The notes under the pieces were generated by a model. That model did no database searches and was not told the origin of the DNA. It saw only the letters and a list, made by a program, of their open reading frames with translations. This document shows, piece after piece, positions 44,326 through 62,635 of a DNA stretch of 64,000 nucleotides (positions are counted from its first letter, which is position 1; every line of letters starts with the position of its first letter). Source of the stretch: Methanotrichaceae archaeon (GTDB lineage Archaea; Halobacteriota; Methanosarcinia; Methanotrichales; Methanotrichaceae); assembly GCA_013178225.1 (NCBI GenBank), contig JABLXE010000015.1, positions 1-64,000 of the forward strand, in the 5' to 3' direction. Position numbers and translations under genes: made by a program.

Positions 44326-44814
44326 TCATAGGTTCAGCCACCAGATCGAGATGTTGAGGAAGGCGGCGAAGCTTACCCATAGGATATATGGTACCATAAG
44401 AAGTGCTGCGGCCCTGGATATCGGAAGAAATCTGATGATGGTGAGCAGTATCAGCGCCCATAAGATCAATATCACCACTATCCCCGCGAGCGGCGATTTC
44501 AGTCCGAAGAAAGCCAGGCTCCAGAGCACATTTACTACCAGCTGGAGGGCGAAGATGATCAGCGCTGCCTTGACCTCAGGCTTTTCTGTTCCTTCTCTTA
44601 TCACCAGAAATAATGCAAGGCCCATCAGAGTGTACAGGATTATCCAAACCAGGCCGATGAACCATCCCGGTGGAGTGAACGCCGGTTTGATCAGTGTTGG
44701 GTACCAGCCCTCTAGCGAGCTGGCGGTGAAAAATGATCCCGCAATTCCTGCAGCCTGACATATCAATATGCTCAGCACGAGCTTAGGGATTTCCCCCTGT
44801 CTGATGTCGTACAT
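44326..44814 (-). CDS. tspO: TspO/MBR (tryptophan-rich sensory protein) family membrane protein
   Basis: The protein is 162 aa with five TM segments and a W/F-rich pattern (GWYPTLIKPAFTPPGWFIGLVWIILY...NVLWSLAFFG). Confidence 0.75.
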   Translation of the reverse strand: MYDIRQGEIPKLVLSILICQAAGIAGSFFTASSLEGWYPTLIKPAFTPPGWFIGLVWIILYTLMGLALFLVIREGTEKPEVKAALIIFALQLVVNVLWSLAFFGLKSPLAGIVVILILWALILLTIIRFLPISRAAALLMVPYILWVSFAAFLNISIWWLNL

Positions 44815-44873
44815 AATGCAAAACCTCGGGTCTATTAAGCAAATTTGTTAGGAGTGTTCTATGGACCTGGATT

Positions 44874-45260
44874 CTAATTTAATTTTTCCTGTGCTTCGAA
44901 TCTCAGCTCCTCGTCTTCAGCCCTCCATCTGGGAAAAACTATGCATAGAAATCTCAGATCTTCTGCGCCGTTATTTTCCAGGTGCTGCCAGGAGCCAGGA
45001 GGAATGAATGCCGCCTGACCAGCCTGGATGAATTCCTCCTGCTCATCGATAGAGATCCTGGCCTTTCCCTGGATGATGAAATATACTTCAGATGATCCTT
45101 TCAGACGATGGGCCAGAGAAGATCCTCCTGGACCAAGAATGGCATAGGCAATGCTATATGGGATTTCGATCTTTTCTCTGTCCGGATGCATGAGTTCGCA
45201 GATTGAGGTTTTGTCCAGAGCTTCAAACCATCTACATTCATTTTGATCTTTAATAATCAT
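44874..45260 (-). CDS. Cupin-domain protein
   Basis: The protein is 128 aa with a beta-barrel cupin pattern (HPDREKIEIPYSI...GSWQHLENNG). Confidence 0.55.
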   Translation of the reverse strand: MIIKDQNECRWFEALDKTSICELMHPDREKIEIPYSIAYAILGPGGSSLAHRLKGSSEVYFIIQGKARISIDEQEEFIQAGQAAFIPPGSWQHLENNGAEDLRFLCIVFPRWRAEDEELRFEAQEKLN

Positions 45261-45503
45261 GGATATCTCTCGCTAATCAGCTCTTGAGGATGAGCATGAC
45301 TCAGACATAAATTTTCCTGAGGATCGAAAATGAATCCTGATTCGGATCTTAAAGGCTTGGTTTTGCTGATTGTAACCCTTCAATTTTTGGTTATTATTTC
45401 GTCTACTGATTTAAGATTTGAACCACCTTTTATTAGATACTCTTAGGAGAATCTATTCCTACTGCCTTATAATAAATACGGTATAACTTTTTAATAAAAA
45501 TTC

Positions 45504-46469
45504 ATGGGAGGAGATATGAGATATATATTGGCGACCATGGCTATGCTGGTTGTCCTTTTCTCAGCAGGCGCAGCTGCCGATGAAAAGATTGTAATCCCCA
45601 GCATACCCAGCGTAGCTGCCACAACCAGCACGTATGTTATGCCCGATGTGCCAATGCCAAGCATAACCAGTTGCGAGAACCCGACCAGCTCTAGCTGCCC
45701 GACTACTTGCGGTTGTATTACCAGCCTTGGATGTCCGAGCGGATCCACCTGTCCAACCGGGTCTGGATGCCCCACCGGTTCGTACTGCATTTCAGGTCCC
45801 GGTTGTGCTTCAGGTCCTGGCTGCAGCACCAACTCCTACTGTCCAACTACTTGCGGCTGTGCGACAGGGGCCCTCTGTCCGACAGGATGCGATTGTGCAA
45901 CCCAATCAAGCTGCCCTACAGGCCCAGGATGCACAACCAACGCCAACTGCCAGACATGCTCTGACTGTCCAACCGGCTCGTCCTGCCCGACCGGGGGAGA
46001 ATGCACAACCAGTTGCCACTGCCAGACATGCTCTGACTGTCCAACCGGCTCGTCCTGCCCGACTGGAGGAGAATGCACAACCAGTTGCCACTGCCAGACA
46101 TGCTCTGACTGTCCAACCGGCTCGTCCTGCCCGACTGGAGGAGAATGCACAACCAGTTCCTACTGCCAGACATGCTCTGACTGTCCAACCGGCTCATCCT
46201 GCCCGACCGGGGGAGAATGCACAACCAGTAGCCACTGCTCAACGTGCTCCGAATGTCCAACTGGAACCAAATGTCCAACTGACTCCGGCTGTCCCAGTGG
46301 TGTAAGGTGTCCGAGCACCAGCAGGTATCCAACAGCTGGGGAGTGTCCCACAGGTTCGAACTGTCCCAGCGGCGGCAGATGTCCCACAGGGACGGGTTGC
46401 TGTGTTTGCGGCCTGTGTCCTACCGGGAGCGGATGCTCGACATCGTGCAGTGATTATCGGTCCGGCTAA
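45504..46469 (+). CDS. Secreted, extremely Cys-rich CPTGS-heptad repeat protein (about 20% Cys)
   Basis: A signal peptide is followed by about 250 aa made of C-P-[TS]-G-[SG]-x-C style heptads, including four near-identical 24-aa units (CQTCSDCPTGSSCPTGGECTTS[CS][HY]). A purine-rich ribosome-binding site (GGGAGGAG) precedes the ATG. Confidence 0.7.
   Translation: MGGDMRYILATMAMLVVLFSAGAAADEKIVIPSIPSVAATTSTYVMPDVPMPSITSCENPTSSSCPTTCGCITSLGCPSGSTCPTGSGCPTGSYCISGPGCASGPGCSTNSYCPTTCGCATGALCPTGCDCATQSSCPTGPGCTTNANCQTCSDCPTGSSCPTGGECTTSCHCQTCSDCPTGSSCPTGGECTTSCHCQTCSDCPTGSSCPTGGECTTSSYCQTCSDCPTGSSCPTGGECTTSSHCSTCSECPTGTKCPTDSGCPSGVRCPSTSRYPTAGECPTGSNCPSGGRCPTGTGCCVCGLCPTGSGCSTSCSDYRSG
45951..46238 (+). 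repeat. Four tandem copies of a 72-bp unit inside the Cys-rich protein gene
   Basis: Units start at 45951, 46023, 46095 and 46167 (CAGACATGCTCTGACTGTCCAACCGGCTCGTCCTGCCCGAC...). There are no more than 3 substitutions per unit. The unit is in-frame (24 codons). Confidence 0.9.
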
Positions 46470-46547
46470 CCCGACCAATAGAGCTAATATTTTTTTTTAA
46501 AAATTATAATTTAAATTGTGATGAATTGAGGTCCGTTCCAGCGGTAA

Positions 46548-46886
46548 TCAGGTCCTGAGTCTCGCCAGAAGAACGCAAGCTGTCCGTCCACCTGAGTAGA
46601 ACTCCAGAGCGGCCCTGGCCACACTCGAGCTGAATTCAGGACGAACCCTGATGCAGACTCCAATCCCTTTGCCGCAAATGGCGAAGGCCACTGCCAGATG
46701 CCCCAGATCGGGGTACACCTGAGCGTTGTTTCCCAGGGTGCAGCCGGATACAGCCTGTACTTCGTCGGCAAAGCAGGCGTTAAACTCTACCAGGGCCAGA
46801 TTTCGCTTTAAATCTCCCATTCTTCTATCTTCTGCGGAGATTTGTGGTGGTTCCGTTTCGCTCAATCCAACCATCTCTAAATCCAA
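46548..46886 (-). CDS. Small FmdE-domain-like protein (C-terminal-half motif only)
   Basis: NACFADEVQAVSGCTLGNN matches the FmdE-family C..D..Q...TGCT.GK motif. The HxCPG half is absent. Confidence 0.35.
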   Translation of the reverse strand: MDLEMVGLSETEPPQISAEDRRMGDLKRNLALVEFNACFADEVQAVSGCTLGNNAQVYPDLGHLAVAFAICGKGIGVCIRVRPEFSSSVARAALEFYSGGRTACVLLARLRT

Positions 46887-46896
46887 CCGTCTCTGA

Positions 46897-47418
46897 TTAA
46901 AGTTTCCTTAGCTCGTCTACCGCTCTCAGGATTACGGACCTGATCTTCTCCCGATCGGTACCAGTCTCCAGGAGATCAGCAACCTGGTGAATCAGTAGAG
47001 CGAGCAGCTCCATATGTTCATTTACGGGAACTCTCATTCCTCGGTGAAGGTTATGCATATCTTTCATCAGATCCTGAACATCGCCCTCCTCGAATGTTTC
47101 GCTGGCCAGGGCTATGGATCGATGAAGCTTATTGATAAATTCATGTTTGGCGTCATTTATCTGAGCAACGTGTTCCCGGCCGGTATCCGTCAGGCTGTAG
47201 TAGGTCTTGCCATCCTCCATCCTTCCCGATATCCAGCCTTCCCGTTCCATCTTCTTCAATAAGGGATAGATCGACCCTGTGCTGGGTTTCTTGCCGGTAA
47301 TCGCTTCCACTTTCTTTATTATATCGTAGCCGGATGCCTCACCATCCTTCATAATGTGAAGCATAATCATCTTCAAGATGCCAGTTGCCATTAGATCTGT
47401 ATCGCTATATCGATGCAT
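46897..47418 (-). CDS. PadR-family transcriptional regulator
   Basis: The N-terminal winged helix (ILKMIMLHIMKDGEASGYDIIKKVEAITG...PSTGSIYPLLKKMEREGWISG) is followed by a C-terminal dimerisation helix. Confidence 0.8.
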   Translation of the reverse strand: MHRYSDTDLMATGILKMIMLHIMKDGEASGYDIIKKVEAITGKKPSTGSIYPLLKKMEREGWISGRMEDGKTYYSLTDTGREHVAQINDAKHEFINKLHRSIALASETFEEGDVQDLMKDMHNLHRGMRVPVNEHMELLALLIHQVADLLETGTDREKIRSVILRAVDELRKL

Positions 47419-47527
47419 ATATCGCTGTTGGTTATTCTTCCAGTCGGTCTATTCACTCGATCAAACCTTTACATCATATCGATTTAGACATATCTATACA
47501 GATACATATACTTTTTGAGCCAACCGT
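47401..47527 (-). promoter_or_regulatory. PadR upstream region: TATA-like element plus ATATCGAT palindrome boxes
   Basis: ATATCGAT occurs at 47406 and 47477, an ATATCGCT variant is present, and TACTTTTTGAGCCAACCG is shared with the promoters at 48714 and 51123. Confidence 0.35.
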
Positions 47528-47609
47528 GCTATAAAGTATAATTATTATCCATAAATTTCATAATAAATAGAAGAAAAGATGGAAAAGATTGCCATCTCGT
47601 CCAATTAGT

Positions 47610-48695
47610 TTAAGAAGATTCAACTCCCAGCACCTTCAGAGGATTGATGCCTGCGCCCTGAAGGACCTGGAGATCGTTCAAGCTCTCCAGATGAAACTCC
47701 TTTATTGTAGAAACGAAGTCCTCGGGGGAGTTGGCTGAGTCCATCAGAATCTCGTCCATCTTCAGCCTCCATGCCCAGGCGGGCCAGGTGTCGGAGTGGC
47801 TCATGTTAAAGCCCTTATCAAGGTCGAATCCCAGCACCAGGCCGTCACCTGAATTGGACGACGCATTCCAGCGGACAAATATTCCGGCCACGCTGGTATT
47901 GTATTTTTTCTTCAAGGCATTGGTCTCGTCTGTGGTGAGGTATTTGACGAACATGCCGCTCTTTCCGGGGGTGCAGTCCCATGCTGCCAGGAAGTAGTCC
48001 TCTTTGCACCAGTTGGGACAGCTTATAACCTTGTAGCTCTGGTTATTATAATCGGTAATCGGGAGCTTATCCTCGACATACTTTGCCTCCAAGAAGCCGC
48101 TGGAGATTCCAGGGCAGAGGTGATCGTGCAGCTCGACCGCTTTCATGAATATGTATGTGGCATTTTCGTGGGCCCACATGTTGGCGATGGGAAGCATGTG
48201 ATCAAAGAATCCCGGTTTCCAGGTATCCTTATTGGCCAGGACGTGGTCAATGTTAATCTTATCCGTTTTCTGGACCTCAAAACCTGTAGCGTTAGCGTTT
48301 ACCTTCATGTAGACAGCCTTGCCGGTGCTCTTATCAAAAAAGCCAAACCATAGCGGTTTCCATGGCGGACTTTGTACATCGACGAGGTTTTCCTTGCCCG
48401 GTGTGCAACCAGAAATATCCATCAATGCATCCAGGCACAAATTTGTGGTCTGACCATTGATCACCGGATATCCGGCATTGGTGAGCGTCAGCACATTCAC
48501 ATCACCCTTCTCGAATCCAAGCTCATCCATGGCATGGTTCGCGGCATCCGCGCCCAGCTGGTACATATCCACTTCGCTGCAAAGAGCCATTCCAGGCAGC
48601 ATAGCTATTATGAGCAGAATTGATACTGCAAATCGATCTATTCTCACATTCTCACCTTTTTGTCTCCTTTCATATGAATATATCTTTATCGACAT
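47610..48695 (-). CDS. Secreted FmdE-domain protein, paralog A
   Basis: Both FmdE motif halves are present but in permuted order (LTNAGY...CLDALMDISGCTPGKENL, then HDHLCPGISSG and a second pair CPNWC). A signal peptide (MSIKIYSYERRQKGENVRIDRFAVSILLIIAMLPGMALC) is present, with a start at ATG 48695 or GTG 48644. It shares HDHLCPG...YKVISCPNWCKED with the 57308..58366 protein. Confidence 0.7.
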   Translation of the reverse strand: MSIKIYSYERRQKGENVRIDRFAVSILLIIAMLPGMALCSEVDMYQLGADAANHAMDELGFEKGDVNVLTLTNAGYPVINGQTTNLCLDALMDISGCTPGKENLVDVQSPPWKPLWFGFFDKSTGKAVYMKVNANATGFEVQKTDKINIDHVLANKDTWKPGFFDHMLPIANMWAHENATYIFMKAVELHDHLCPGISSGFLEAKYVEDKLPITDYNNQSYKVISCPNWCKEDYFLAAWDCTPGKSGMFVKYLTTDETNALKKKYNTSVAGIFVRWNASSNSGDGLVLGFDLDKGFNMSHSDTWPAWAWRLKMDEILMDSANSPEDFVSTIKEFHLESLNDLQVLQGAGINPLKVLGVESS

Positions 48696-48740
48696 GTCTA
48701 TGAGATATAAATATGTTTTGACTAATTCGTAACCATAATT
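48672..48740 (-). promoter_or_regulatory. Promoter of FmdE paralog A: TATA box plus operator-like box
   Basis: On the minus strand TTTATATCTCAT reads as a TATA box, with TATCGACATGTCTA just downstream. The approximately 90-bp block ATGAGATATAAATATGTTTTGACTAATTCG...ATTTCATAAGAATTGATCCAAGG is about 85% identical to 51109-51190. Confidence 0.4.
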
Positions 48741-48819
48741 ATGATTATTTAACATTTATTTCATAAGAATTGATCCAAGGGACAGGAAAGATTTAAATTT
48801 TAAAAATTAAAATTATTTT

Positions 48820-49833
48820 TTATTTTTTAGCTATATCAATATCCATCGGCCCCCACCCAGTTTGGATGGTGCGAGACCGTACCGATCTGAATCCGGCCTT
48901 CAGCATGGCATCGGCAATGAAGCCCTGCTCGAAGGCCATCATCGGCCCGTTCATGGCCCAGCCCACAGTACAGAGCACATAGAAGTCCGGCTTCGTTCCC
49001 TCATCAGTAAGGCCTTCAGAAAGGTTCACGAAAAGGCCGCCGGGATTGAGGGCCTCGTAGATCTTCTTCATAACCGCGTCCATATTTTCTCGGGCGAAGT
49101 TGAGGGTGGCACTTGCCCAGATGAGATCGTAACCCTCACCGATGGGATCAAGATTGTAATCTCCGGCAAGAACCTCCATCCGGCCTTCCATTCCATACTC
49201 TTTGATGAACCTCTCCGCAACCTCGACCACAGGCTTTCGGTCAAAGATCACTCCCCTCATAGTGGGATGCTTTGCGACCATTGAAATTCCGAAGATGCCA
49301 GGACCGCCGCCCAGATCCAGCATCTTTTGAAATGATGAGAACCCCGGCTGCAGAGAGACCAGATCGGACATCTGCTGGGCAATTCCTGCTCGTTCATTAT
49401 TGGCCATCCAGGATGCAAACTGGCTCCATTTTTGAGGATCGGCATCGTCCTCCTCAGACTTTGCCGGCGGTCCCTCTCGGATCATCTTTGTCAGGTTTGT
49501 CAGCATCGCATCGGTCATGGAGGCCTGATGGGCAAACCCTTCTCCCAAATAGGTCGGGCTTCCCTCAACCAGAAAAGCCTGCGCAATTGGTGCGTTCCGA
49601 TAGAGGCCGTTATGCTTTTCTATCAGGCCGCAGGCGGCCAGGCCATTTAAAAATAGCATGGTGTTCCGGGATTGACCTTCGATCTCCTTCGCCACGTCCT
49701 CTGCTGATTTGGGCTCGGATAGCTGGTTAAAAACTTTTAGCTCGATTCCACTCATCAGCAGCTTGGCTTTAATAGGAGCATAAAGCATCCTGTAAAGCTC
49801 CTCGCAGCTGACATTTACCTCTGGCAGATTCAT
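48820..49833 (-). CDS. Class I SAM-dependent methyltransferase, O-methyltransferase family-2-like (N-terminal dimerisation/winged-helix plus MTase)
   Basis: Motif I is LDLGGGPGIFGISMV. An acidic residue after beta-2 (VIFDRKPV) is present, and the length fits the plant/bacterial OMT-type fold. Confidence 0.65.
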   Translation of the reverse strand: MNLPEVNVSCEELYRMLYAPIKAKLLMSGIELKVFNQLSEPKSAEDVAKEIEGQSRNTMLFLNGLAACGLIEKHNGLYRNAPIAQAFLVEGSPTYLGEGFAHQASMTDAMLTNLTKMIREGPPAKSEEDDADPQKWSQFASWMANNERAGIAQQMSDLVSLQPGFSSFQKMLDLGGGPGIFGISMVAKHPTMRGVIFDRKPVVEVAERFIKEYGMEGRMEVLAGDYNLDPIGEGYDLIWASATLNFARENMDAVMKKIYEALNPGGLFVNLSEGLTDEGTKPDFYVLCTVGWAMNGPMMAFEQGFIADAMLKAGFRSVRSRTIQTGWGPMDIDIAKK

Positions 49834-49887
49834 TGAGATTTCTCCTATTTCTGAAGTTGTATTGGGCGATCACTTGACAAGGTCAAT

Positions 49888-51060
49888 TCAGGTTATCTCC
49901 AGGTAGCGCAAAAGCTGCGCGTCAATAAGCTCGTTTGCCTTCTCATCGTCCACGTCGTAAAGCTCTCTGAAGTAATCCTCGATCCACTCTTCGAGATCGA
50001 TGTCCTCGAAACGATCTGGATATATTGCCTTCGCCGCTATCATCAGATGTATTGGAAATTCAAGCCGTTCATCCCTGTAAGGTGTAGCCGCAAGTGAATG
50101 TACCCGTTCGTCTTTTAGGGCTTTTAGCTCCTGGACTTTTTCAAACTGGCTGCCGTTATACATTACACTGGGAGGATGGTAGCCGGAGTATGTCGGCAAT
50201 ATTATCACATCGGGATCTATGGATAAAAGGCGCTCAGCTGAGATGAGCTCTGTATTGGTGCCGTCATAAGCGTTCTTGGCATTGATTATGTCCTCCAGGA
50301 ATGCTGATTCGATGGTGTCTGTGCCAAAGGCATAACCTGCGCCTCCTTTGTCCTTCGCGTAAGAGGACGCACCGAAGTACAGAACACGGGGACGATCTTT
50401 TTCTGAAACATCATTTGTCCTCTCCCTGATCAGCTCCACCTGTTCTTTCATGAGGTCAACGATCTTCTCTGCCTTCTCCTGTTTTCCAAATACCTCTCCC
50501 AGGAGCCTGACCTCTTCATAAATGGTGCTGACGCTCACATCATCATAGCAATCGGGATACTTCAATACCACAACGGGTATCTCCAGCCGCGACACTGCGT
50601 CCAGGAATTTAGCAGTATTTTCATCATCTGCACCCTGATCCCTCATTATTAAAAGATCCGGATCAAGTGAGGCTACAACCTCTACGTTGGGTGCAACTCC
50701 AAGGGGCCCGCCAAAAGCTCCTACATTGGTGAGATTTCGATACTCCGGATTGAGCACAAAGGAGATAAAAGGGCATATGCGATGGATTTCATTGTCATAA
50801 GTATAGTTGCCGTATCCATTGTCCTTATTGTATATGCTTCCGCCTACCAGCTTATCCTGCACGCCGAATGCATACATGGTCGTGTCTATAATTCCTCGGC
50901 TGATCGCGATGACCCTCTGCGGATCCTCCGGGATCGAAACCTGGACTCCGCGCATGTCGGTTACTGTCTTATAATCCTCTGCGACAACCGACACCACCTG
51001 CATAGCGACTATCGCCATTAAGATAGATAAAATCTGCATTCTTTTGGATTTTGTGATCAT
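49888..51060 (-). CDS. ABC-importer substrate-binding protein, FecB/BtuF (iron-siderophore/corrinoid) type
   Basis: A signal peptide is followed by a class III PBP pattern (two lobes linked by a long helix). LSIDPDVIIL and VVASLDPDLLIM are typical FecB blocks. Confidence 0.8.
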   Translation of the reverse strand: MITKSKRMQILSILMAIVAMQVVSVVAEDYKTVTDMRGVQVSIPEDPQRVIAISRGIIDTTMYAFGVQDKLVGGSIYNKDNGYGNYTYDNEIHRICPFISFVLNPEYRNLTNVGAFGGPLGVAPNVEVVASLDPDLLIMRDQGADDENTAKFLDAVSRLEIPVVVLKYPDCYDDVSVSTIYEEVRLLGEVFGKQEKAEKIVDLMKEQVELIRERTNDVSEKDRPRVLYFGASSYAKDKGGAGYAFGTDTIESAFLEDIINAKNAYDGTNTELISAERLLSIDPDVIILPTYSGYHPPSVMYNGSQFEKVQELKALKDERVHSLAATPYRDERLEFPIHLMIAAKAIYPDRFEDIDLEEWIEDYFRELYDVDDEKANELIDAQLLRYLEIT

Positions 51061-51075
51061 GGTTTCCTCCTGATA

Positions 51076-51140
51076 TATCGATACAGACGTGTCGATAAAG
51101 ACGTATCAAAATGAGATATAAATACTTTTTGACTCAATCG
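51076..51140 (-). promoter_or_regulatory. Promoter of PBP 49888..51060: TATA box followed by two palindrome boxes
   Basis: The boxes ATATATCGATACAGACGTGTCGATAAAG contain the 8-bp palindrome TATCGATA and lie between the TATA-like element GAGATATAAATAC and the start codon. Confidence 0.4.
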
Positions 51141-51252
51141 AACAGATATAATATGAATATTAAGCATTCATTTCACAAGAACTGATCAAGGCACCAAAAG
51201 GCTCAACCGATTTTGCAGATAAGGCGAGGGTCATAGGTCAAAGGCCAAAAAG

Positions 51253-51290
51253 CATTTATATCTATATCGATATGTCTGCGTCGATATATC
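51253..51290 (+). promoter_or_regulatory. Promoter of the 51351 operon: TATA box plus ATATCGATAT palindromes
   Basis: The sequence is CATTTATATCTATATCGATATGTCTGCGTCGATATATC, an inverted copy of the 51076 boxes, sitting in the divergent intergenic region. Confidence 0.4.
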
Positions 51291-51350
51291 AAATTAGCAA
51301 ACTTAAAGCAAGTGCACTTGCTTAAAATATCTAATGCAACTCGGATGTGA

Positions 51351-52613
51351 TTGAAGGTGATCCAAATGAGATATCTTGTGATATTGGCATCGTGCATTTT
51401 AGCGGCTTTGTCCGCTAATGCATACGATTTCACTTTGAGCGTTTTTGGAAATGCCAATATGGACGACATCATAGATAATAATGATATAGCATATGTCCAG
51501 GGCATAATCGATAGCAGCAATGGAGCTACTGATCTTGCGGATGCAAATTGTGATGGCCATATCGACGAGAATGACGTCAATCAAATTGAATCGATAATAT
51601 CTGGCAAAGCGGTAGAGCTTACTCTCATTGATAATGAAGGCGTGACGGTTACCCTAAACGCGCCTGTAGACAGCGTTGCCACTTTATTTTTAGGAGCTCT
51701 AAGGCCGGTTATTCATCTCAAAGCTATCGATAAGATAATTGGTGTAGGAAGCAATACCCTGGCCAGGCCCGACAATGTGGTGGAGTTGCATGCCCATCCT
51801 GAGCTGAGGGGGCTTCCAGGAATAGGGACCACAAGCGACCCTTCAAAGGAGACCATAGTCTCACTTAAGCCGGATGCGATCTTTGGGACCCTTCACACGG
51901 ATAAGGAAACTTCAAAGGCCGTTTCTCAGAGCACAGGCATTCCTTTTGTATATGCCAATCCGTCGAAAGAGGTATTTCGCGAAGAAAATGGCGCTTTTGA
52001 GACCTGGAGGTTGCTGAGCCTAATATTAGGAAAGGACGAGCAAAAAAGATCTGAAGAGCTGATAGATTACTGCGATGAGAAGATCAACGAAATTGTGGAA
52101 GTCGTCTCTGAGGTCCCTGATGAAGACAAAACCAGGGTTTACATTGCCTGCACCAGCAAATCAGGCATAACCAGTACCGCCAATGTCTACGAGCCTATAG
52201 AAATCGCCGGCGGTAAAAACGTTGCAGAAGGAATGGCCGGGAGCGATTCCTGGGGGCACGTCGATGTCTCAAAGGAACAGATCATCGACTGGGACCCGGA
52301 GATAATTCTGATCACCTGCTATTCCAAGGAAAACTGGATAACTGTGGACGAAGTTTTATCTGATCCCGCGTTGCAGACCGTCAGTGCGGTAAAAAATAAG
52401 CAGGTCTACAATACGAAGGGCTGGTATGCAGGCTGGGATCCTGCAACGGGTCTATGTGAATGCCTATACATGGCCAAGCTGTTTTATCCCGAGAAATTCG
52501 AGGACCTTGATGTCGAAGCAGAATGCAACGAGGTGCTTGAAGAGTTCTACGGAGTCAGCGGACTGTACGACTGGATGCTGGAGAACTGCGGGGATTACTG
52601 CACCTGGAAGTAG
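51351..52613 (+). CDS. FecB-type substrate-binding protein with an N-terminal dockerin-like double repeat
   Basis: The signal peptide is followed by two EF-hand-like repeats of the type seen in type I dockerins (NANMDDIIDNNDIAYVQGIID and DANCDGHIDENDVNQIESIISG). After these comes an FecB-type periplasmic binding fold. Confidence 0.75.
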   Translation: MKVIQMRYLVILASCILAALSANAYDFTLSVFGNANMDDIIDNNDIAYVQGIIDSSNGATDLADANCDGHIDENDVNQIESIISGKAVELTLIDNEGVTVTLNAPVDSVATLFLGALRPVIHLKAIDKIIGVGSNTLARPDNVVELHAHPELRGLPGIGTTSDPSKETIVSLKPDAIFGTLHTDKETSKAVSQSTGIPFVYANPSKEVFREENGAFETWRLLSLILGKDEQKRSEELIDYCDEKINEIVEVVSEVPDEDKTRVYIACTSKSGITSTANVYEPIEIAGGKNVAEGMAGSDSWGHVDVSKEQIIDWDPEIILITCYSKENWITVDEVLSDPALQTVSAVKNKQVYNTKGWYAGWDPATGLCECLYMAKLFYPEKFEDLDVEAECNEVLEEFYGVSGLYDWMLENCGDYCTWK

Positions 52614-52639
52614 GCGAAAAAAAAAGCAAGTTGTGAAAT

Positions 52640-53713
52640 ATGTCGTCTCAATCAAAAGTAATTGAACTGGATATAATCGAGGCACAGTACACGCAGTTCC
52701 TAGGGAAGAGGTACCTCTTCCTCCTCGTCCTGGCCCTCATAACCATTGCGCTGGCAGGCACGGCCGTTACACTTGGCGTGATCAAGCTTTCGATCGGACA
52801 GGTCTACGAGGCAATTCTTCATAACTTCCTTCCCGATCAATTCCAGGCAACCGAGGAAGCCCAGCGAGTGGTCTGGAACATCCGGCTGCCTCGAATACTT
52901 TTTGGGATATTAGCCGGCATGGGCCTGGGGATAGCAGGAGCAGTTATGCAGGTGGTTCTCAAGAACCCCCTGGCCAGCCCTTACACACTGGGCATATCGT
53001 CCGCAGCCGGATTCGGAGCTGCGGTGGCCATACTCCTGGGCCAGGGTTTTTTCGGCAGCTATCTCATTGCAGGAAACGCCTTTGTATTTGCCCTCCTCTC
53101 ATCGATGATCATTGTGGCCATAGCCAGACATAAGGGTGCCACTCCAGAGATAATGGTCCTGTCGGGAATTGCCATCATGTACTTCTTCTCGGCCTGCACT
53201 ACACTGCTGGAGTACTTTGCTGACTCGGATGCGGTCAAAGGCGTGGTCTTCTGGATGGTCGGAAGCCTTAGCAAAGCATCATGGAACGAACTATATGTGC
53301 TCTGTTTCGTGCTGGCGGTTTGCATTCCCATCCTTGTCTGGAAGTCATGGGATTTCAACGTCATGAGTTCAGGGGATGAGACGGCGAAAAGCCTGGGAAT
53401 AGATGTGGACAGGACGAGAAACCTGTCAATGATTATCTCCAGCCTGATAGTGGCAAGCATCGTGGCCTTCACAGGGACCATAGGATTCATCGGTCTGGTG
53501 GCCCCTCACATCGCCCGCATGGTCGTAGGGGGAGACAACAAGTTCGTCCTGCCGGGATCAGCGCTATTGGGCGGACTGCTGCTGGCAGGAGCTGATGTTG
53601 TGGCCCAGCATATCATGCCGCCTGTCATCCTTCCTATTGGAGTCATGACTGCCTTCATGGGAATTCCCCTGTTCTTCTATCTGATAATGAGGCGGAGAAA
53701 GGGGTACTGGTAG
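52640..53713 (+). CDS. FecCD/BtuC-family ABC importer permease
   Basis: The protein has about 10 TM segments. The conserved FecCD blocks RLPRILFGILAGMGLGIAGAVMQ and LSGIAIMYFF are present. Confidence 0.85.
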   Translation: MSSQSKVIELDIIEAQYTQFLGKRYLFLLVLALITIALAGTAVTLGVIKLSIGQVYEAILHNFLPDQFQATEEAQRVVWNIRLPRILFGILAGMGLGIAGAVMQVVLKNPLASPYTLGISSAAGFGAAVAILLGQGFFGSYLIAGNAFVFALLSSMIIVAIARHKGATPEIMVLSGIAIMYFFSACTTLLEYFADSDAVKGVVFWMVGSLSKASWNELYVLCFVLAVCIPILVWKSWDFNVMSSGDETAKSLGIDVDRTRNLSMIISSLIVASIVAFTGTIGFIGLVAPHIARMVVGGDNKFVLPGSALLGGLLLAGADVVAQHIMPPVILPIGVMTAFMGIPLFFYLIMRRRKGYW

Positions 53714-53738
53714 AAACCATTTATACAACGAGACGATC

Positions 53739-54509
53739 ATGGTGCTCAAAGTCAAAGATTTGGTCTTCGCCTATTCCGGCGTGAAGATCCTGGATCGAGT
53801 ATCGCTGGAGCTGGAAAGGTCAGAGGTCCTGGGAGTTATAGGACCAAACGGGGCAGGCAAATCCACCTTGATCAGGTGCATGAACAGGGTGCTCAGACCT
53901 CAGAGCGGGAAGATAACACTGGACGGGATCGATATCAGAGATATGGATAGGATAGATATCGCTCGCAGGATGGGATACGTCCCGCAGGCCTCCAAAAACT
54001 CCTTTCCGGCCACGGTCTTCGATACGATCCTCATGGGCCGGAGGCCCCACGGAGGATGGAAAAGCAGCTCAAGCGACGTTAAGAAAGCTCTGGAGGTGCT
54101 AAAGCTGGTTAGTTTGGAAGATCTGGCCATGAGGGACTTCACTGAGCTTTCCGGAGGGCAGCAGCAGAAGGTAGTGCTGGCTCGAGCCCTGGTCCAGGAG
54201 GCGGAGGTGCTCCTGCTGGATGAGCCCACCTCAAACCTGGATATCAGGCAGCAGCTTGAAACTATGGAGATCATCAGAAGGCTGGCTAAAGAGAGGGGCA
54301 TATCCGCCCTGATGGCCGTACACGATCTGAACCTGGCGGCGCGATACGCCGACAGGATAGTAATGCTCAAAGGCGGCCGCGTCCTCGATGCAGGTGATCC
54401 TTTTTCGGTGTTAACTGCAGAGAACATCAAAGCAGTATATGGAGTGGAGGCAGCGGTGAAGGAAGACGACTGCAGACCCTATATTTTGCCGAGAGGTTCT
54501 GTGAAATAG
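53739..54509 (+). CDS. ABC transporter ATP-binding protein (FecE/BtuD type)
   Basis: Walker A (GPNGAGKST), the signature LSGGQQQKV, Walker B (LLLDEPTSNLD) and an H-loop are all present. Confidence 0.9.
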   Translation: MVLKVKDLVFAYSGVKILDRVSLELERSEVLGVIGPNGAGKSTLIRCMNRVLRPQSGKITLDGIDIRDMDRIDIARRMGYVPQASKNSFPATVFDTILMGRRPHGGWKSSSSDVKKALEVLKLVSLEDLAMRDFTELSGGQQQKVVLARALVQEAEVLLLDEPTSNLDIRQQLETMEIIRRLAKERGISALMAVHDLNLAARYADRIVMLKGGRVLDAGDPFSVLTAENIKAVYGVEAAVKEDDCRPYILPRGSVK

Positions 54510-57307: not shown

Positions 57308-58366
57308 TTACAGTACCCCGGCAACCTTTAACGGATGCATGCCGGCGTTCTGCAGCTGTGACAGCGTGGCCTGGTCCACCTTGAACTCCTTGATGGTTGA
57401 GACGAAGGCTTCAGGGGTGTCCACATAATCCATGAGGACCACGTCGGATGCCAGCTTGCTTCCCCAGGAGGGGCCGGTCCAGTTGGTCTTCGCAGCGCTG
57501 GAGTTATAGCTCAGAGCCAGTGCGTCGCCCTCATTGGTGGTGCTGTTCCAGCGGATGAAGATGCCGGCAATTCCGGGAATAGCCTTCTTCTCAGTATCGG
57601 TCAGAGCCATCACGAACATGCCGCTCTTTCCAGGGGTGGCATCCCAGCGCATCTGCAGCAGGTCTTCTTTACACCAGTTGGGGCAGGAGATGACCTTATA
57701 GCTCTCGCTGCTGCTGTTTATGGGCAGCTTGTCCTCGACGTACTTGGCCAGGAAGAGGCCGCTGGTCACGCCCGGGCAGAGGTGATCGTGGAAACAGGTG
57801 GCCTGTATGAAGTCAAACGACCCGCCGCGGGCCCAGACGTTGGATATGCCGGCTAAAGAGAACTCATTGCCGTTGAAGACCGCCTGGTTGAAGGTCACAT
57901 TTCCTTCATCGGTGTGGTTTTTCAGATAGTCGATGTCCACATTGGCCCTGGAGATGGTGCTGAACACCGTCTTTGCAGGCAGGGCCTTGAAATCGTCCAG
58001 GCTGGCGTTCAGTGACTGAGGATCAACCTCCATATAGACTGCTTCGCCGGTGGCCTTGTTGAAGAAATAGAACCACAGCGGCTTCCAGAAAGCCCGCAGG
58101 ACCTGGAACAGGTTACCGTCACCGATGCTGTTTCCGCTCTCTTCGGTCAGCCCCTTGATGGCCGCCTGGGTGGTCTGTCCATCCACCATGGCGTGTCCGG
58201 CATCGGTCAATATCAGGACATTGGCATCTCCTTTCTCGACATCGAGCTGCTGCATGGCCTCCTTGGCCGCCTTGATGCCAAGCTCTTCCATAACCGCGTT
58301 GTCGGCCAGGGAAAGCCCCGGAACCAGTGTCAGGAAAAGAACCGTGGCAATCGATACAACTTTCAA
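57308..58366 (-). CDS. Secreted FmdE-domain protein, paralog B
   Basis: A signal peptide (MKVVSIATVLFLTLVPGLSLA) is followed by the same permuted FmdE motifs (LTDAGH...; HDHLCPGVTSG; CPNWCKED). It aligns along its length with paralog A. Confidence 0.7.
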   Translation of the reverse strand: MKVVSIATVLFLTLVPGLSLADNAVMEELGIKAAKEAMQQLDVEKGDANVLILTDAGHAMVDGQTTQAAIKGLTEESGNSIGDGNLFQVLRAFWKPLWFYFFNKATGEAVYMEVDPQSLNASLDDFKALPAKTVFSTISRANVDIDYLKNHTDEGNVTFNQAVFNGNEFSLAGISNVWARGGSFDFIQATCFHDHLCPGVTSGLFLAKYVEDKLPINSSSESYKVISCPNWCKEDLLQMRWDATPGKSGMFVMALTDTEKKAIPGIAGIFIRWNSTTNEGDALALSYNSSAAKTNWTGPSWGSKLASDVVLMDYVDTPEAFVSTIKEFKVDQATLSQLQNAGMHPLKVAGVL

Positions 58367-58781
58367 ATTCGTTACAATACCTCCTATGACTTTGGAATTG
58401 TAATTTCTTATTTATGAATATTTCTACTTGAAGTATTACTAAATTGCAATATGCTTTTCGCATCCAATTTTTCACATCCAATCATAGATCCCAAATACGA
58501 CGGCCCATGAATTATCTGCCTGCTCAGAGATTGATAAGCTTGTTTGATATACGAAAATAAATTAAAATATGTTTAATACACATACCATTATGAAAATCAA
58601 AGCAAAAAGTCATATATATGCAAATAAAAATTAGAAAAATTATGCGCTCAATTCATTTCATAGAATCACGCAAAGCTTCGCGCAGGAGCCCCTGATCAAG
58701 CCATGACCCGGCTCAGATATTTCCGGAGGCGAGACCATCCCTGCGTATTCGATTGAGACCCACAATCTGACCAAGAAGTTC

Positions 58782-59618
58782 GTGATACGAAAAGGTCTTT
58801 CTCACCTTCTGAAGAATCTGCATAAAAGCGATGTTATAACCTCGCTTGATTCCGTAAGCATGAAGGTTCGGGAAGGAGAGGTAGTCGGCCTTCTCGGCCC
58901 CAATGGGGCAGGCAAATCCACTCTGATTAAGATCCTCTGCACGCTGATCCTGCCAACGTGCGGCGAGGCTTGCATCAACGGCTACGATGTAGTAAAAGAG
59001 AGCAGACGGGTCCGGGAATCCCTCGGCTTCGTCACCACCGATGAGAGAAGTTTCTACTGGCGGCTGAGCGGGAGAGAAAACCTCCAGTTCTTTGCCGCTC
59101 TACACAATATGAGGTCTATTGACGCTCAAAGAAAGGCGGATGAGGTACTGGATGTCGTCCACCTGAAGAACAGAGCCGATGAGCTTTTCTTGAACTACTC
59201 GGCAGGGATGAAGCAGCGCATGGCCATTGCCAGAGGACTGCTAAATGACCCATTAGTCCTGTTCATGGACGAGCCCACCCGGAGCCTGGACCCCGGATCG
59301 GCAAAGAGTCTCAGGGACTTCATCAAGGAGATCATCGTAAAGGAACAGGGAAAGACGGTCTTTATCTGCACCCATCAGCTGGACGAGGCCGAGCAGTTGT
59401 GCGATAGGGTGGCATTTCTCGATGAGGGCAGGCTCAAGGCCATTGGAGATCCGGCTGAACTGAAGAAAGACCTGGGAGATGGCTCCTCGCTCTGCGATGT
59501 ATTCTCCCATTATACAGGAAAACGGTTCGAAGACGAATGCCCTTCACAATTTCCGCTAATGGGCCGCAGAGATGGCATGCGTCATAGGGGATTTGGGATG
59601 AGGAGACGGGGATTGTAA
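58782..59618 (+). CDS. ABC transporter ATP-binding protein (ABC-2 exporter type)
   Basis: Walker A (GPNGAGKST), a signature variant (YSAGMKQRMAIA) and Walker B (LFMDEPTRSLD) are present. Confidence 0.85.
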   Translation: MIRKGLSHLLKNLHKSDVITSLDSVSMKVREGEVVGLLGPNGAGKSTLIKILCTLILPTCGEACINGYDVVKESRRVRESLGFVTTDERSFYWRLSGRENLQFFAALHNMRSIDAQRKADEVLDVVHLKNRADELFLNYSAGMKQRMAIARGLLNDPLVLFMDEPTRSLDPGSAKSLRDFIKEIIVKEQGKTVFICTHQLDEAEQLCDRVAFLDEGRLKAIGDPAELKKDLGDGSSLCDVFSHYTGKRFEDECPSQFPLMGRRDGMRHRGFGMRRRGL

Positions 59619-60436
59619 TGGAGCAGATCTTGCTTTTTGAAAAGGCCCGCTGGTTCATAAAGAGGGGTTATCTGCTACAGATGAGCTACAAATTCGATTT
59701 CTTCTTGCGATTATTCTTTATGTTCTTCAATATCCTTACCTATTACTTCATTGCCAAGATGATCGGAGATGCGGGCTCGCAGTACCTTCAGTCCTACGGA
59801 GGCGACTATTTCTCATTTGTGCTCATAGGAATGGCCTTCTCCGGCTACCTCCAGATCTCCCTTCGAAGCTTCTCAGAGAGCGTCCGGGACGAGCAGATGA
59901 TGGGAACCCTAGAAGCCATGCTGGTCACTCCCACCAGCACATCCACCATCATCGCTTTATCATCTCTTTGGAGCTTTATCTTTGCCTCATTCCGGGTACT
60001 GGTCTATCTCCTGATCGGCGTTTTCCTGGGCGTAAACATGACCAACGCCAATATTGCAGGGGCACTGGTAATTCTGGTTCTGACCATAATGTGCTTCAGC
60101 GGCATCGGCATATTATCTGCGAGCTTCATTATGGTCTTTAAGAGAGGAGACCCGATAAACATGCTGCTCATGGGAACGTCCGAACTCTTCGGAGGCGTGC
60201 TGTTTCCAATTGAGGTCCTTCCGGCGTGGCTGCAGAGCATATCTCACCTCCTTCCCATGACCTATGCCGTCAACGGCATGAGACATGCTCTCTTGCAGGG
60301 ATATTCTCTGCAGGAATTGGCCCCCGAAATCCTGCCCCTGGCCCTATTCTCTCTCATCTTGCTACCTATTAGCCTGGTGGTTTTTGATCGTGCGGTGATG
60401 AGGGTCAAGGCTTACGGCGGATTGGTCCAATATTAG
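59618..60436 (+). CDS. ABC-2 family transporter permease
   Basis: The protein has six TM segments. Its start overlaps the ATPase gene stop, consistent with an ABC-2 exporter pair. Confidence 0.75.
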   Translation: MEQILLFEKARWFIKRGYLLQMSYKFDFFLRLFFMFFNILTYYFIAKMIGDAGSQYLQSYGGDYFSFVLIGMAFSGYLQISLRSFSESVRDEQMMGTLEAMLVTPTSTSTIIALSSLWSFIFASFRVLVYLLIGVFLGVNMTNANIAGALVILVLTIMCFSGIGILSASFIMVFKRGDPINMLLMGTSELFGGVLFPIEVLPAWLQSISHLLPMTYAVNGMRHALLQGYSLQELAPEILPLALFSLILLPISLVVFDRAVMRVKAYGGLVQY

Positions 60437-60585
60437 CATAATTCCCCTCTTATTTCTCTATTTTATTTCGTGTTATTTTTTATAGTTGAAAATCAAAATG
60501 CTTTGAAATAAATAATCTAATTCAATAACATATTAACGATAAGTCTTAAATATGATTTAATAATTAACACAAAACTTGTGCAAAT

Positions 60586-61785
60586 ATGAATGAAGGCCGT
60601 AAGAGGCCTGCCAATCGTATCACAACGAGCACGGAGAGAGAACGAATGCGCATCATTAACCTGTCAAATAGGGCATTGCTGCTACTATTATTATGCTCCA
60701 TATTTTTTTTGAGCTTATCAGCAATGGCATCGTATCCCAAGACCTTTACCGATACTCAGGGCCGGGAGATAACGCTTGATGAGCCGGTGGAGAGGATAAT
60801 CACCCGGGCTCCGGACGAAGCCAGGGTGATCATTGCCCTGGGATATGGAGACAAGCTAATTGCAGGAGAACAGGCCACCAAATCCTGTCTCTGCCCCATG
60901 ACCTTCGACAATACCACAGAGGGATGCTCGGACTGCTTCAACACCATCATCGGCGGCCGCATGCCGGATCTGCCCGAGATCAGCACTCGATATGACATCT
61001 ACTTCGAGCAGATAGCTGCCCTCAAGCCTGACATCATCTTCTGCGGAAACCTGAAAGATGCTGAAGCCTTCGAGGAGAAGATCGGCTGCCCGGTGGTCGT
61101 TTTGGGAGGTTCAGGCTGGGACTTCGATGACGGCGGATGCATAACCAGCATCAAGGTGGCCGGGGAGGCCCTGGACTGCGAAGACCGGGCTGACGATTTG
61201 ATCGATTTCATAAACGGCAAGATCGATATGGTGAAATCGGTATCGGAAAATGTACCTGAGGACGAGAAACCCACGGTCTACTTCGCATCCCGCGGCGCGA
61301 CCAACGCCTTTTACGACCCCAAGGAGGGACGGGACTTCACCCGAACCGAGCCCTCGTATGATCCTCTGCTGGCTGCAGGCGGCCATAACGTGGCCTCTGA
61401 GATCAACGGCTCCACAGTGAACGTGGCACTCGAGCAGATCATTGCCTGGGACCCGGACTACATCTTCATATCCAACAGCCAGGCGGGAAACAACACCGGA
61501 CTGGATTTCATCAAGAACAGCCCTGAACTTCAATCCATAAATGCCATCAAGAACGGCAATGTCTACAACTGCTTCTATCCCCACTGCCGCGGCCAGCCTC
61601 CAGACCGAAACCTCCTGAACATGCTCTACATGGCCAAGATCCTCTATCCGGAGGAGTTCGAGGATATGGACCTGGAAGAAGAGGGCAATGAGGTCTTCAA
61701 GGCCTTCCTGGGAGTGGACGGAGTCTTTTCGGACTATGCCGATTACCTGGTTTGGCCCAGGGAATACCTGGACAGCCTGAAGTAG
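60586..61785 (+). CDS. FecB-type substrate-binding protein (lipoprotein-like signal)
   Basis: The likely start is MRIINLSN...LLLCSIFFLSLSAMAS near 60646. The FecB blocks ALKPDIIFC and IAWDPDYIFIS are present. Confidence 0.75.
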   Translation: MNEGRKRPANRITTSTERERMRIINLSNRALLLLLLCSIFFLSLSAMASYPKTFTDTQGREITLDEPVERIITRAPDEARVIIALGYGDKLIAGEQATKSCLCPMTFDNTTEGCSDCFNTIIGGRMPDLPEISTRYDIYFEQIAALKPDIIFCGNLKDAEAFEEKIGCPVVVLGGSGWDFDDGGCITSIKVAGEALDCEDRADDLIDFINGKIDMVKSVSENVPEDEKPTVYFASRGATNAFYDPKEGRDFTRTEPSYDPLLAAGGHNVASEINGSTVNVALEQIIAWDPDYIFISNSQAGNNTGLDFIKNSPELQSINAIKNGNVYNCFYPHCRGQPPDRNLLNMLYMAKILYPEEFEDMDLEEEGNEVFKAFLGVDGVFSDYADYLVWPREYLDSLK

Positions 61786-61795
61786 GGATTCGGAT

Positions 61796-62635
61796 ATGAC
61801 TGGAGTCATAAACTGGAACGAACTCTGGAAGGTGAGCCACCATAACGGCTTTCACCATCACGGCGAAGATCTTGCCGATCACTGGGATCGCAGAGCCCGG
61901 GAGTTCAACCGTATGGTCATGCGGCACAAAGAGAGGGCAGAGGCTCAGGTTTCCTCTCTGGGCTTGAGCCACGAGGACACGGTTTTGGATATAGGTGCCG
62001 GAACCGGTCGCCTGGCCATCCCCATGGCCAGGATAGCCAAGTCCGTAACTGCCCTGGACCAGTCCGGCGGAATGCTGGCCTGCCTCAAGGAAAATATGGA
62101 TAGAGAAGGCCTATCCAATATCCAGATAGTGCAGAAGAGCTGGCAGGACCTGAGCCCGGACAGCCTTCCGGGGCACGACGTGGTTCTCTCATCCAACTCC
62201 TTGGGCGTTTCCGACTTGCAGGAGGCACTCTCCAAGATGGACGGCCTGGCCAAAAAGGCCGTTTACATCTTCACCTTTGCAGACCGGAAGAGGGACGAAG
62301 GATTTCACGACTTTCTGGGGCAAAAGCATCATCATCATCATCATCGGGCCTCCAACCTTCCGCCAGACTATATCATAATCTATAATCTGCTCGCAGAAAT
62401 GGGAATTCTCGCCGACGTGAAGATCGTTGAGTGGGAAGCCCAAGAGCACTACTCAAGTCTCGAGGAGGCAGTGGCTAGCTGGAAGGAGATGCACGAGATT
62501 TTACCGGAAAAAGAGCCGCAGCTGAGGGAATTTCTGTCCCAGAAGCTGGAAAAAGACGACCAGGGACTGTGTATGCACCGGCGCTCCAAGCAGGCCAGGA
62601 TATCCTGGCAAAAGAGCCTGGAAGGTCCCGCCTAG
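61796..62635 (+). CDS. Class I SAM-dependent methyltransferase containing a native His6 tract
   Basis: Motif I is VLDIGAGTGRLAIPMA, motif II is HDVVLSSNS, and an internal GQKHHHHHHRAS run is present. Confidence 0.7.
   Translation: MTGVINWNELWKVSHHNGFHHHGEDLADHWDRRAREFNRMVMRHKERAEAQVSSLGLSHEDTVLDIGAGTGRLAIPMARIAKSVTALDQSGGMLACLKENMDREGLSNIQIVQKSWQDLSPDSLPGHDVVLSSNSLGVSDLQEALSKMDGLAKKAVYIFTFADRKRDEGFHDFLGQKHHHHHHRASNLPPDYIIIYNLLAEMGILADVKIVEWEAQEHYSSLEEAVASWKEMHEILPEKEPQLREFLSQKLEKDDQGLCMHRRSKQARISWQKSLEGPA

Follow-up and report, generated by a model that had tools for sequence, protein, structure and literature searches.

The operators of PadR, LmrR and their relatives are described as ATGT/ACAT repeats separated by a spacer of 8–10 nt (PMC3506622), and the crystal complex of Bacillus subtilis PadR contains an operator of the form TGT-N8-ACA (PMC7145548; PMC5728393), with the canonical DNA-binding triad of the family consisting of two tyrosines and a basic residue of the wing, Tyr20, Tyr42 and Lys64 in the B. 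subtilis protein (PMC5728393). In archaea, PadR-like proteins are described in the structural paper mainly as segregation factors (PMC5728393). The present analysis concerns a PadR-family gene and the short palindromic boxes at four neighboring promoters in a 64,000-nt stretch (the window) of a metagenome-assembled genome of the Methanotrichaceae (Methanothrix/Methanosaeta). These boxes are probably the operators of the adjacent PadR, through which it would repress its own gene, the gene of the FmdE-domain protein FmdE-A, the PBP1–O-methyltransferase pair and the PBP2–FecCD–ATPase genes. Searches of the literature turned up no paper dealing with this subfamily of archaeal PadR proteins, with its motif or with its regulon.

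The features of the PadR family and the canonical geometry of its operators are already known, and the regulator–operator logic of the locus is ordinary; what is new is the lineage, the content of the regulon, the partnership with FmdE, and the incorporation of the TATA box into overlapping tandem sites. Almost nothing is known of gene regulation in Methanothrix (Methanosaeta), a major producer of methane from acetate, and the locus, which combines a defined 16-bp site with a small regulon and an architecture that is conserved, is among the cleanest regulator–operator pairs available in this group.

The proposed operator unit and its distribution in the window

The original prediction, which was made from the DNA alone, had taken an 8-bp palindrome as the repeated unit of the boxes. 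The functional unit is instead a 16-bp inverted repeat, AT(A/G)TC(G/T)-N4-(C/A)GA(C/T)AT, which reads as T(G/A)T-N8-A(C/T)A and is found in tandem arrays of two or three, in which neighboring units have their terminal AT in common, this 2-bp overlap giving a 14-bp phase. Alignment of 17 sites from the window and the orthologous loci yields the consensus aTATCGAcATGTCggTnTCGATATAaT, with reverse-complement correlations of 0.89 and 0.62 at its two dyads and a direct correlation of r = 0.71 at the 14-bp phase; the symmetrized consensus is ATaTCGaTAtCGAtAT, and the promoter-proximal sites give ATGTCGgTnTCGATAT, again the T(G/A)T-N8-A(C/T)A pattern. Judged from sequence, the boxes have the published canonical geometry of PadR operators. 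The 8-mer ATATCGAT, from which the shorter unit had been derived, comprises the end of the spacer and most of one half-site.

Two simpler units were considered and rejected. An 8-bp palindrome is too short for a winged-helix dimer and is missing from many conserved sites (AGACATGTCG at the FmdE-A promoter, and those of the loci L006, L014 and L018). Pure 14-bp direct repeats of CGATAT account for the phase, but not for the strong dyads, the geometry of PadR sites, or the Thermoplasmata locus L022, where two units abut without overlap in a 16-bp phase, which fits a 16-bp unit and not a fixed 14-bp direct repeat.

Specificity was assessed with a symmetrized 16-bp matrix built from 24 sites taken from PadR promoters in 12 further genomes, the window itself being excluded. 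When the 64-kb window is scanned with this matrix, the nine top matches all fall within the four promoters, six of them with high scores (51258, 24.5; 47476, 21.8; 48680, 21.3; 51075, 19.4; 47490, 19.4; 51272, 18.7) and three with weaker ones (47407, 14.8; 51089, 13.2; 47393, 10.7), the tenth match scoring 10.4. The maximum in shuffled windows averages 12.7 and never exceeds 16.7, to be compared with 18.7–24.5 for the six strong real sites. Against unrelated bacterial PadR loci totalling 1.1 Mb, a 24-nt version of the matrix gave no score of 16 or above.

The 8-mer ATATCGAT occurs 10 times on the two strands of the window against 2.28 expected (standard deviation 1.39), and none of 100 shuffles contained 10 or more copies, in agreement with the earlier estimate of about two chance occurrences and with the enrichment read from it. 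Five copies lie in the four promoters, at 47407, 47476, 51075, 51264 (+) and 51266 (−). The original prediction had made its operator reading depend also on how frequent the motif is elsewhere, coding regions included; within these 64 kb the other five copies (5466, 11923, 40440, 53928 and 61222) are singletons within long open reading frames (ORFs), and the operator matrix scores none of them. Of the box positions given earlier, 51264 is exact and the others are off by at most 4 nt (47406, 47477 and 51079 become 47407, 47476 and 51075), and the degenerate or partial copies near 48686, ~51091 and 51280 are present in the sequence. The TATA-like element that had been ascribed to all four promoters is found as an exact TTTATATCT at three of them, at 48703–48711 (−), 51114–51122 (−) and 51255–51263 (+), with 0.3 occurrences expected, the PadR promoter holding the variant GTATATGTATCT in its place.

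Association of the boxes with PadR across genomes

The association between boxes and PadR was followed in both directions. In the forward direction, a protein-similarity scan with one genome per species gave 15 orthologue loci (L010–L024) with PadR identities of 36–91%, seven of them from Methanotrichaceae and eight from Bathyarchaeia, Thermoplasmata and one bin labelled Acidoferrum. All 15 carry a TATA-like element and a double site no more than ~40 nt from the PadR start, and in every one the boxes stand between the TATA element and the PadR start. The double site is retained in Bathyarchaeia and Thermoplasmata, where PadR identity is 36–46%; examples are CTATATCGATATGTCGGTGTCGATATG from a Bathyarchaeote and AATCGACATGTCGGTAGAGATATAATG from L006. 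The next more distant PadR, in L025 (29% identity), has no double site. In many of the orthologous PadR promoters the double site runs up to the ATG, so that the predicted transcript would be leaderless or nearly so; the boxes, lying between TATA and ATG, would hence be untranscribed, which argues for an action at the level of DNA.

In the reverse direction, the DNA pattern ATATCKNNNNMGAYATGTCKNNNNMGAYAT was searched on its own against 241 million metagenome records and returned 41 loci, 29 of which adjoin a PadR gene: in 27 a PadR of the subfamily starts beside the match, and in two the PadR is a distant one. The remaining loci look eukaryotic or satellite, and their number is as expected by chance. 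The association with PadR is strict, and the earlier proposal that the adjacent PadR is the regulator and the boxes its repressor operators finds support in these comparative data (15/15 and 29/41 loci) as well as in the window-free matrix. Queries with N-terminal extensions confounded an automated count of sites per gene ahead of the PadR starts, and the count is not used as a statistic. Since the pair is also present in uncultured Bathyarchaeia and Thermoplasmata, a single binding experiment would be transferable to many genomes.

Two observations extend beyond the orthologues. In two bacterial metagenome contigs of 69–72% GC (L094, 480–600; L122, 1790–1900), three 14-bp-phased boxes, e.g. 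ATATCGACACCGATATGTCTAGACCGATATGTCGAATTCGTCATG, stand directly upstream of a PadR of only ~25% identity, so that this type of operator may predate the archaeal subfamily and extend beyond it. A contig end in L002 (1–40; also in L004) carries a strong double site, TACAGACCTATCTGCATCGATATG, and the gene that begins ~160 nt further downstream, for a 1342-aa protein resembling BcrAD_BadFG/HGD-D-type activases, is possibly a further member of the regulon in that genome.

The PadR protein

The PadR gene (46897..47391, −) encodes 164 residues from the start MATG at 47391 and matches Pfam PF03551 with E = 3e-16 (59.6 bits against a cut-off of 27). The protein is 100% identical to a Methanotrichaceae metagenome protein at NCBI, all of its sequence matches in the PDB are PadR proteins, and a Foldseek search with the predicted model returns LmrR, PadR and Rv3488 at the top, with a probability of 1.00. 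The recognition helix, GKKPSTGSIYPLLK (region GKKPSTGS(I/V)YPLLK), is invariant across all orthologues, as would suit an operator that is itself conserved. In the alignment with B. subtilis PadR, its Tyr20, Tyr42 and Lys64 correspond to Tyr22, Tyr42 and Lys62 here, and this Tyr/Tyr/Lys triad is invariant in 18 orthologues (Y31, Y51 and K71 in P0001 numbering).

The orthologue alignment also calls for a different start codon than the one annotated for this PadR family. The conserved start is the MATG at 47391, whereas the database annotation begins at 47418 with MHRYSDTDL, an extension that consists of the proximal operator boxes in translation, an artefact seen in many orthologues as well. An exact database look-up of the 164-aa protein gave no match because the databases carry the 173-aa annotation.

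In the predicted structure the winged helix-turn-helix is confident, and the three C-terminal helices have predicted local distance difference test (pLDDT) values of 42–60 over residues 100–140; superposition on 5X11 is poor beyond the winged helix-turn-helix (TM 0.40, root-mean-square deviation 13.8). Within this C-terminal domain of low model confidence, residues ~102–127 form a His/Met/Asp-rich insertion, EEGDVQDLMKDMHNLHRGMR, which according to the orthologue alignment is confined to the Methanotrichaceae clade of the subfamily and is possibly a metal or ligand site.

Architecture of the four promoters

With TATA and TFB-recognition elements (BRE) assigned by consensus and transcription starts predicted ~26 nt from the TATA center, the four promoters align along the direction of transcription as a BRE/TATA of the form AAAAAGyATTTATATCT followed by boxes in 14-bp phase. 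Relative to these elements, the boxes overlap the TATA or follow it, reach over the predicted start, and are in no case upstream of the BRE. They had been described as standing downstream of a separate TATA box; this applies to two of the promoters, and at the other two the TATA itself makes up half of the first site.

These other two are the PadR distal and PBP2 promoters, where the 3′ part of the TATA (ATATCT or GTATCT) belongs to the first unit and the second unit covers the predicted start. The PadR distal operator (47476..47505, −) consists of two overlapping 16-bp sites, GTATCTGTATAGATAT and ATGTCTAAATCGATAT (scores 19.4 and 21.8), behind a consensus BRE/TATA-like element, AAAAAGTATATGTATCT, placed at 47500..47516 (−) by the four-promoter alignment. 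The PBP2 operator (51258..51287, +) combines ATATCTATATCGATAT, which overlaps the TATA, with the overlapping ATGTCTGCGTCGATAT (24.5 and 18.7), its BRE/TATA being the consensus match AAAAAGCATTTATATCT at 51247..51263 (+); it is near-identical in L002 and L016.

At the FmdE-A and PBP1 promoters, full units cover the predicted start together with the beginning of the transcript. The FmdE-A operator (48680..48699, −) comprises the palindrome AGACATGTCG and the full site ATGTCGATAAAGATAT (score 21.3), follows a consensus BRE/TATA, AAAACATATTTATATCT, at 48703..48719 (−), and is kept in L011, L016 and L127. The PBP1 operator (51075..51104, −) comprises the overlapping sites ACGTCTTTATCGACAC and ACGTCTGTATCGATAT (13.2 and 19.4), follows the consensus BRE/TATA AAAAAGTATTTATATCT at 51114..51130 (−), and is kept in L001, L002 and L016.

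The PadR gene has, in addition, a proximal pair of boxes, ATATATGCATCGATAT and ATAGCGATACAGATCT (47393..47422, −; scores 14.8 and 10.7), which abuts its start codon, is kept in L011, L012, L013 and L016, and is the counterpart of the leaderless-type promoter of the other orthologues; it may serve as a second promoter or as a roadblock.

Upstream of the boxes the promoters also resemble one another, though to a lesser degree than had been thought: the blocks 48692–48780 and 51101–51190, reported as ~85% identical, are 76% identical (71/93 columns), shuffled sequences averaging 54% with a maximum of 61%, and a third copy, 66–67% identical, lies upstream of PadR. Alignment delimits a conserved element of the pattern TTnTTrTGAAAT-N12-14-ATTCATA-like, 45–75 nt upstream of the TATA boxes of PadR (copy A, TTATTATGAAAT...AATTATAC, 47536..47566, −), FmdE-A (copy B, 48738..48769, −) and PBP1 (copy C, 51150..51181, −, with an ATGAAT-N7-ATTCAT, in the interval that separates the divergent promoters of PBP1 and PBP2). 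The window matches TTNTTRTGAAAT exactly only at these three minus-strand promoters. The element is a candidate upstream activator site; close orthologues from Methanotrichaceae have it, and L006, L008 and L014 lack it. In the PBP2 leader, ~20–40 nt past the predicted start, there is a perfect 18-bp palindrome, AAGCAAGTGCACTTGCTT (51306..51323, +), which occurs once in the window and whose stem is kept in L002 and L016, the center changing from TGCA to TAAA; an RNA hairpin is one possibility and the site of a second regulator another, and the palindrome may lie outside the PadR system.

Proposed mechanism and alternative explanations

In the model favored here, one winged-helix PadR dimer would occupy each 16-bp unit through two successive major grooves, as in B. 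subtilis PadR. With units lying over TATA and the predicted start, bound PadR would block TBP/TFB, the recruitment of RNA polymerase, or both, and would in this way autoregulate its own gene and repress FmdE-A, PBP1–O-methyltransferase and the PBP2–FecCD–ATPase importer. A ligand would then release PadR, sensing being possibly helped by the FmdE-domain partner or by the His/Met-rich C-terminal insertion. In archaea, sites on or downstream of TATA and over the start are the typical position for a repressor, and DtxR and QacR are known to occupy overlapping sites as pairs of dimers. On the sequence evidence, binding of the boxes by PadR is quite probable; simple repression, which is read from the position of the sites, is somewhat less so.

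Several points weigh against this model. The base-contacting residues of the protein are Thr-Gly-Ser, as opposed to His-Ser-Gln (His38-Ser39-Gln40) in B. subtilis PadR, a difference that is consistent with the modified half-site. Adjacent sites have a central CGAyATGTCG in common, which leaves the inner monomers ~3–4 bp apart, so that two dimers bound at once would need different faces of the DNA or a distortion of it. Nor would occlusion of the TATA be general, since the FmdE-A and PBP1 promoters have their TATA half-site out of register (N3 and N5), and the positions of TATA elements and starts rest throughout on consensus assignment. The reverse-scan pattern was derived mainly from PadR promoters and is biased towards them, and the scan of the source genome covered 64 kb.

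Among the alternatives, the one that survives best, though unlikely, is that PadR binds the boxes as an activator or in a dual role. Some PadR-like proteins, e.g. PrhP, are reported as positive regulators (PMC6804342), and the TATA lies outside the in-register site at FmdE-A and PBP1; the placement of the sites relative to BRE, TATA and the predicted start, however, speaks against activation, and the autoregulated PadR–efflux layout of the distant orthologues resembles that of an LmrR-type repressor (PMC3506622).

Somewhat less probable again is that the boxes are real operators of another transcription factor, for instance a DtxR-like or MarR-like regulator of the kind encoded near the orthologous loci or an FmdE-containing factor, with PadR a mere member of the regulon. 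Genes of DtxR and MarR type do adjoin the PBP2–FecCD–ATPase operon in L002 and L004, and FmdE is always next to PadR in the Methanotrichaceae, to the point of being fused to it in L015. The motif, however, follows PadR across phyla into loci that have PadR, an ABC ATPase and an ABC-2 permease and lack DtxR, MarR and FmdE, the window has no DtxR or MarR gene near the boxes, and the geometry of the sites is that of PadR (PMC3506622; PMC7145548).

That the likeness of the promoters is a trace of local duplication, or an AT-rich coincidence, and the boxes are devoid of a regulatory role is very improbable: the ~60 bp upstream common to three promoters (66–76% identity) do show common descent, but the half-sites are conserved while spacers and flanks diverge, the identical type of box stands upstream of PadR in lineages with unrelated surrounding sequence, and the observed scores are never reached by shuffles. 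An action of the palindromes in RNA, as leader hairpins affecting stability or translation, has equally little in its favor: transcription from the PBP1 and PBP2 promoters would include the downstream box and the 18-bp palindrome, but the leaderless-type PadR promoters have their boxes upstream of the predicted start and abutting the ATG, conservation tracks the symmetry of DNA half-sites and not stem pairing, and an Rfam search of 46000–52500 found no RNA family.

Gene content and the possible FmdE partner

The gene assignments of the original prediction are borne out by Pfam, which recognizes the PadR, FmdE, O-methyltransferase, FecCD and ABC ATPase domains as well as two of Peripla_BP_2. 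FmdE-A (47610..48647, −; PF02663) has 345 residues and a signal-peptide-like N-terminus. Its longest ORF begins at 48755 and engulfs its own promoter, and its start is likely the GTG at 48647, in view of a GGAGA ribosome-binding site, the signal-peptide-like N-terminus and orthologues of 345–348 aa. The O-methyltransferase (48820–49833, −; PF00891 and PF08100) and PBP1 (49888–51060, −; PF01497, Peripla_BP_2) are on the same strand, 54 nt apart, and presumably form one operon (48820..51060). PBP2 (51366–52613, +; Peripla_BP_2), the FecCD permease (52640–53713, +) and the ABC ATPase (53739–54509, +) constitute an import operon (51366..54509, +). The importer is of the siderophore/B12/heme class; the NCBIfam matches of the regulon genes (siderophore, B12, heme, nickel, ArsM-like), including that of the FecCD permease to BtuC/FhuB-type permeases, are all below cut-offs, so that no substrate can be assigned.

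Directly 3′ of PadR lies a truncated FmdE-domain gene (46548..46886, −; PF02663, E = 4e-10), whose tblastn alignment covers only residues 81–152 of a 261-aa orthologue, as would befit a remnant of a conserved PadR–FmdE pair. The operon 3′ of PadR (44800–46886) is truncated as a whole, the UbiE/TrmO methyltransferase, MatE and NikA-like binding protein of the orthologous loci being absent, and a 321-aa ORF at 45504–46469 (+) has no Pfam match. A second, paralogous module at 57308–62635 holds FmdE-B, an ABC ATPase, an ABC-2 permease (an exporter), a Peripla_BP_2 protein and a methyltransferase. The matrix scan found no PadR boxes in its AT-rich promoters (58367–58781 and 60437–60585), which puts the paralogous genes there outside the regulon; the module is presumably controlled differently.

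Across the orthologues two operon types are seen. In Bathyarchaeia and Thermoplasmata, PadR is followed by a DrrA-like ABC ATPase and an ABC-2 permease, which is the classic PadR–efflux layout. In the Methanotrichaceae, the operon runs from PadR through FmdE, a UbiE/ArsM-like methyltransferase with a TrmO domain and MatE to a NikA-like binding protein, and boxes are also found at the PBP1/O-methyltransferase, PBP2–FecCD–ATPase and FmdE-A promoters. FmdE adjoins PadR in every case in this family, and in L015 (709–1926) the two are fused into a single protein of 405 aa, with PF03551 at 21–87 and PF02663 at 187–330; a survey of archaeal fusions likewise records, for three Methanosaeta assemblies, a fusion of FmdE with a transcriptional regulator (PMC11237513). 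The fusion suggests that the FmdE domain works with PadR, possibly as a sensing module.

A wider reading, which is put forward tentatively and is rather doubtful, would join these elements into a two-part sensor of PadR and FmdE, in which FmdE would be the module that binds the ligand or metal, and which would control a chelate or cofactor regulon; pairs or arrays of dimers would fill the overlapping 14-bp-phased sites cooperatively, with the TATA box itself as a half-site. This regulon would be specific to Methanothrix and would serve to make, export and re-import a metal chelate or cofactor by means of the methyltransferases (UbiE/ArsM-like and with a TrmO domain), MatE, the NikA-like and siderophore/B12-type binding proteins, and the secreted FmdE. 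The regulon ties secreted and cytoplasmic FmdE-domain proteins to importers of the siderophore/B12 type, and in this it points to a supply route for trace metals or cofactors in methanogens.

Comparison with known systems

As to mechanism, the locus can be compared with MDR1 of Archaeoglobus fulgidus, which is said, after Bell et al. in 1999, to be autoregulated and to bind tandem operators over the start of an ABC metal transporter operon, blocking the recruitment of polymerase. MDR1 reportedly belongs to another protein family (DtxR) and recognizes another operator sequence, so that the analogy is a mechanistic one only.

Within the archaea, RosR of Halobacterium salinarum (hsRosR) is likewise a PadR/MarR-like winged-helix dimer, with an experimental motif of TGT-N10-ACA (PMC7145548), and it is among the fold matches of the present protein. 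It differs in the 10-nt spacer of its motif (8 nt here), in being an oxidative-stress regulator with dispersed targets, and in having ~15% identity to this PadR.

LmrR of Lactococcus lactis (lmrR/lmrCD) is an autoregulated PadR-family repressor with an ATGT/ACAT repeat and an adjacent ABC transporter (PMC3506622). The distant orthologues of the present PadR, which head an operon with an ABC ATPase and an ABC-2 permease, resemble it in layout, and LmrR is the best fold match. Unlike the protein described here, LmrR is short (subfamily 2) and bacterial, and the regulon of the Methanotrichaceae has come to include importer, FmdE and methyltransferase genes.

The B. subtilis PadR/padC operator complex (PDB 5X11) shares with the locus a winged-helix PadR dimer, predicted in the archaeal case, and the palindromic TGT-N8-ACA geometry (PMC5728393; PMC7145548). 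The Tyr/Tyr/Lys triad is kept, and the two-domain (subfamily 1) architecture of ~165–190 aa appears to be shared, with the C-terminal part of the model being poor; by analogy, this PadR too would be a repressor released by a small ligand. In contrast to the B. subtilis system, the half-site here is extended to AT(A/G)TC(G/T), the sites are in tandem, overlap one another and overlap the TATA of an archaeal promoter, and the targets are uptake genes in place of a decarboxylase.

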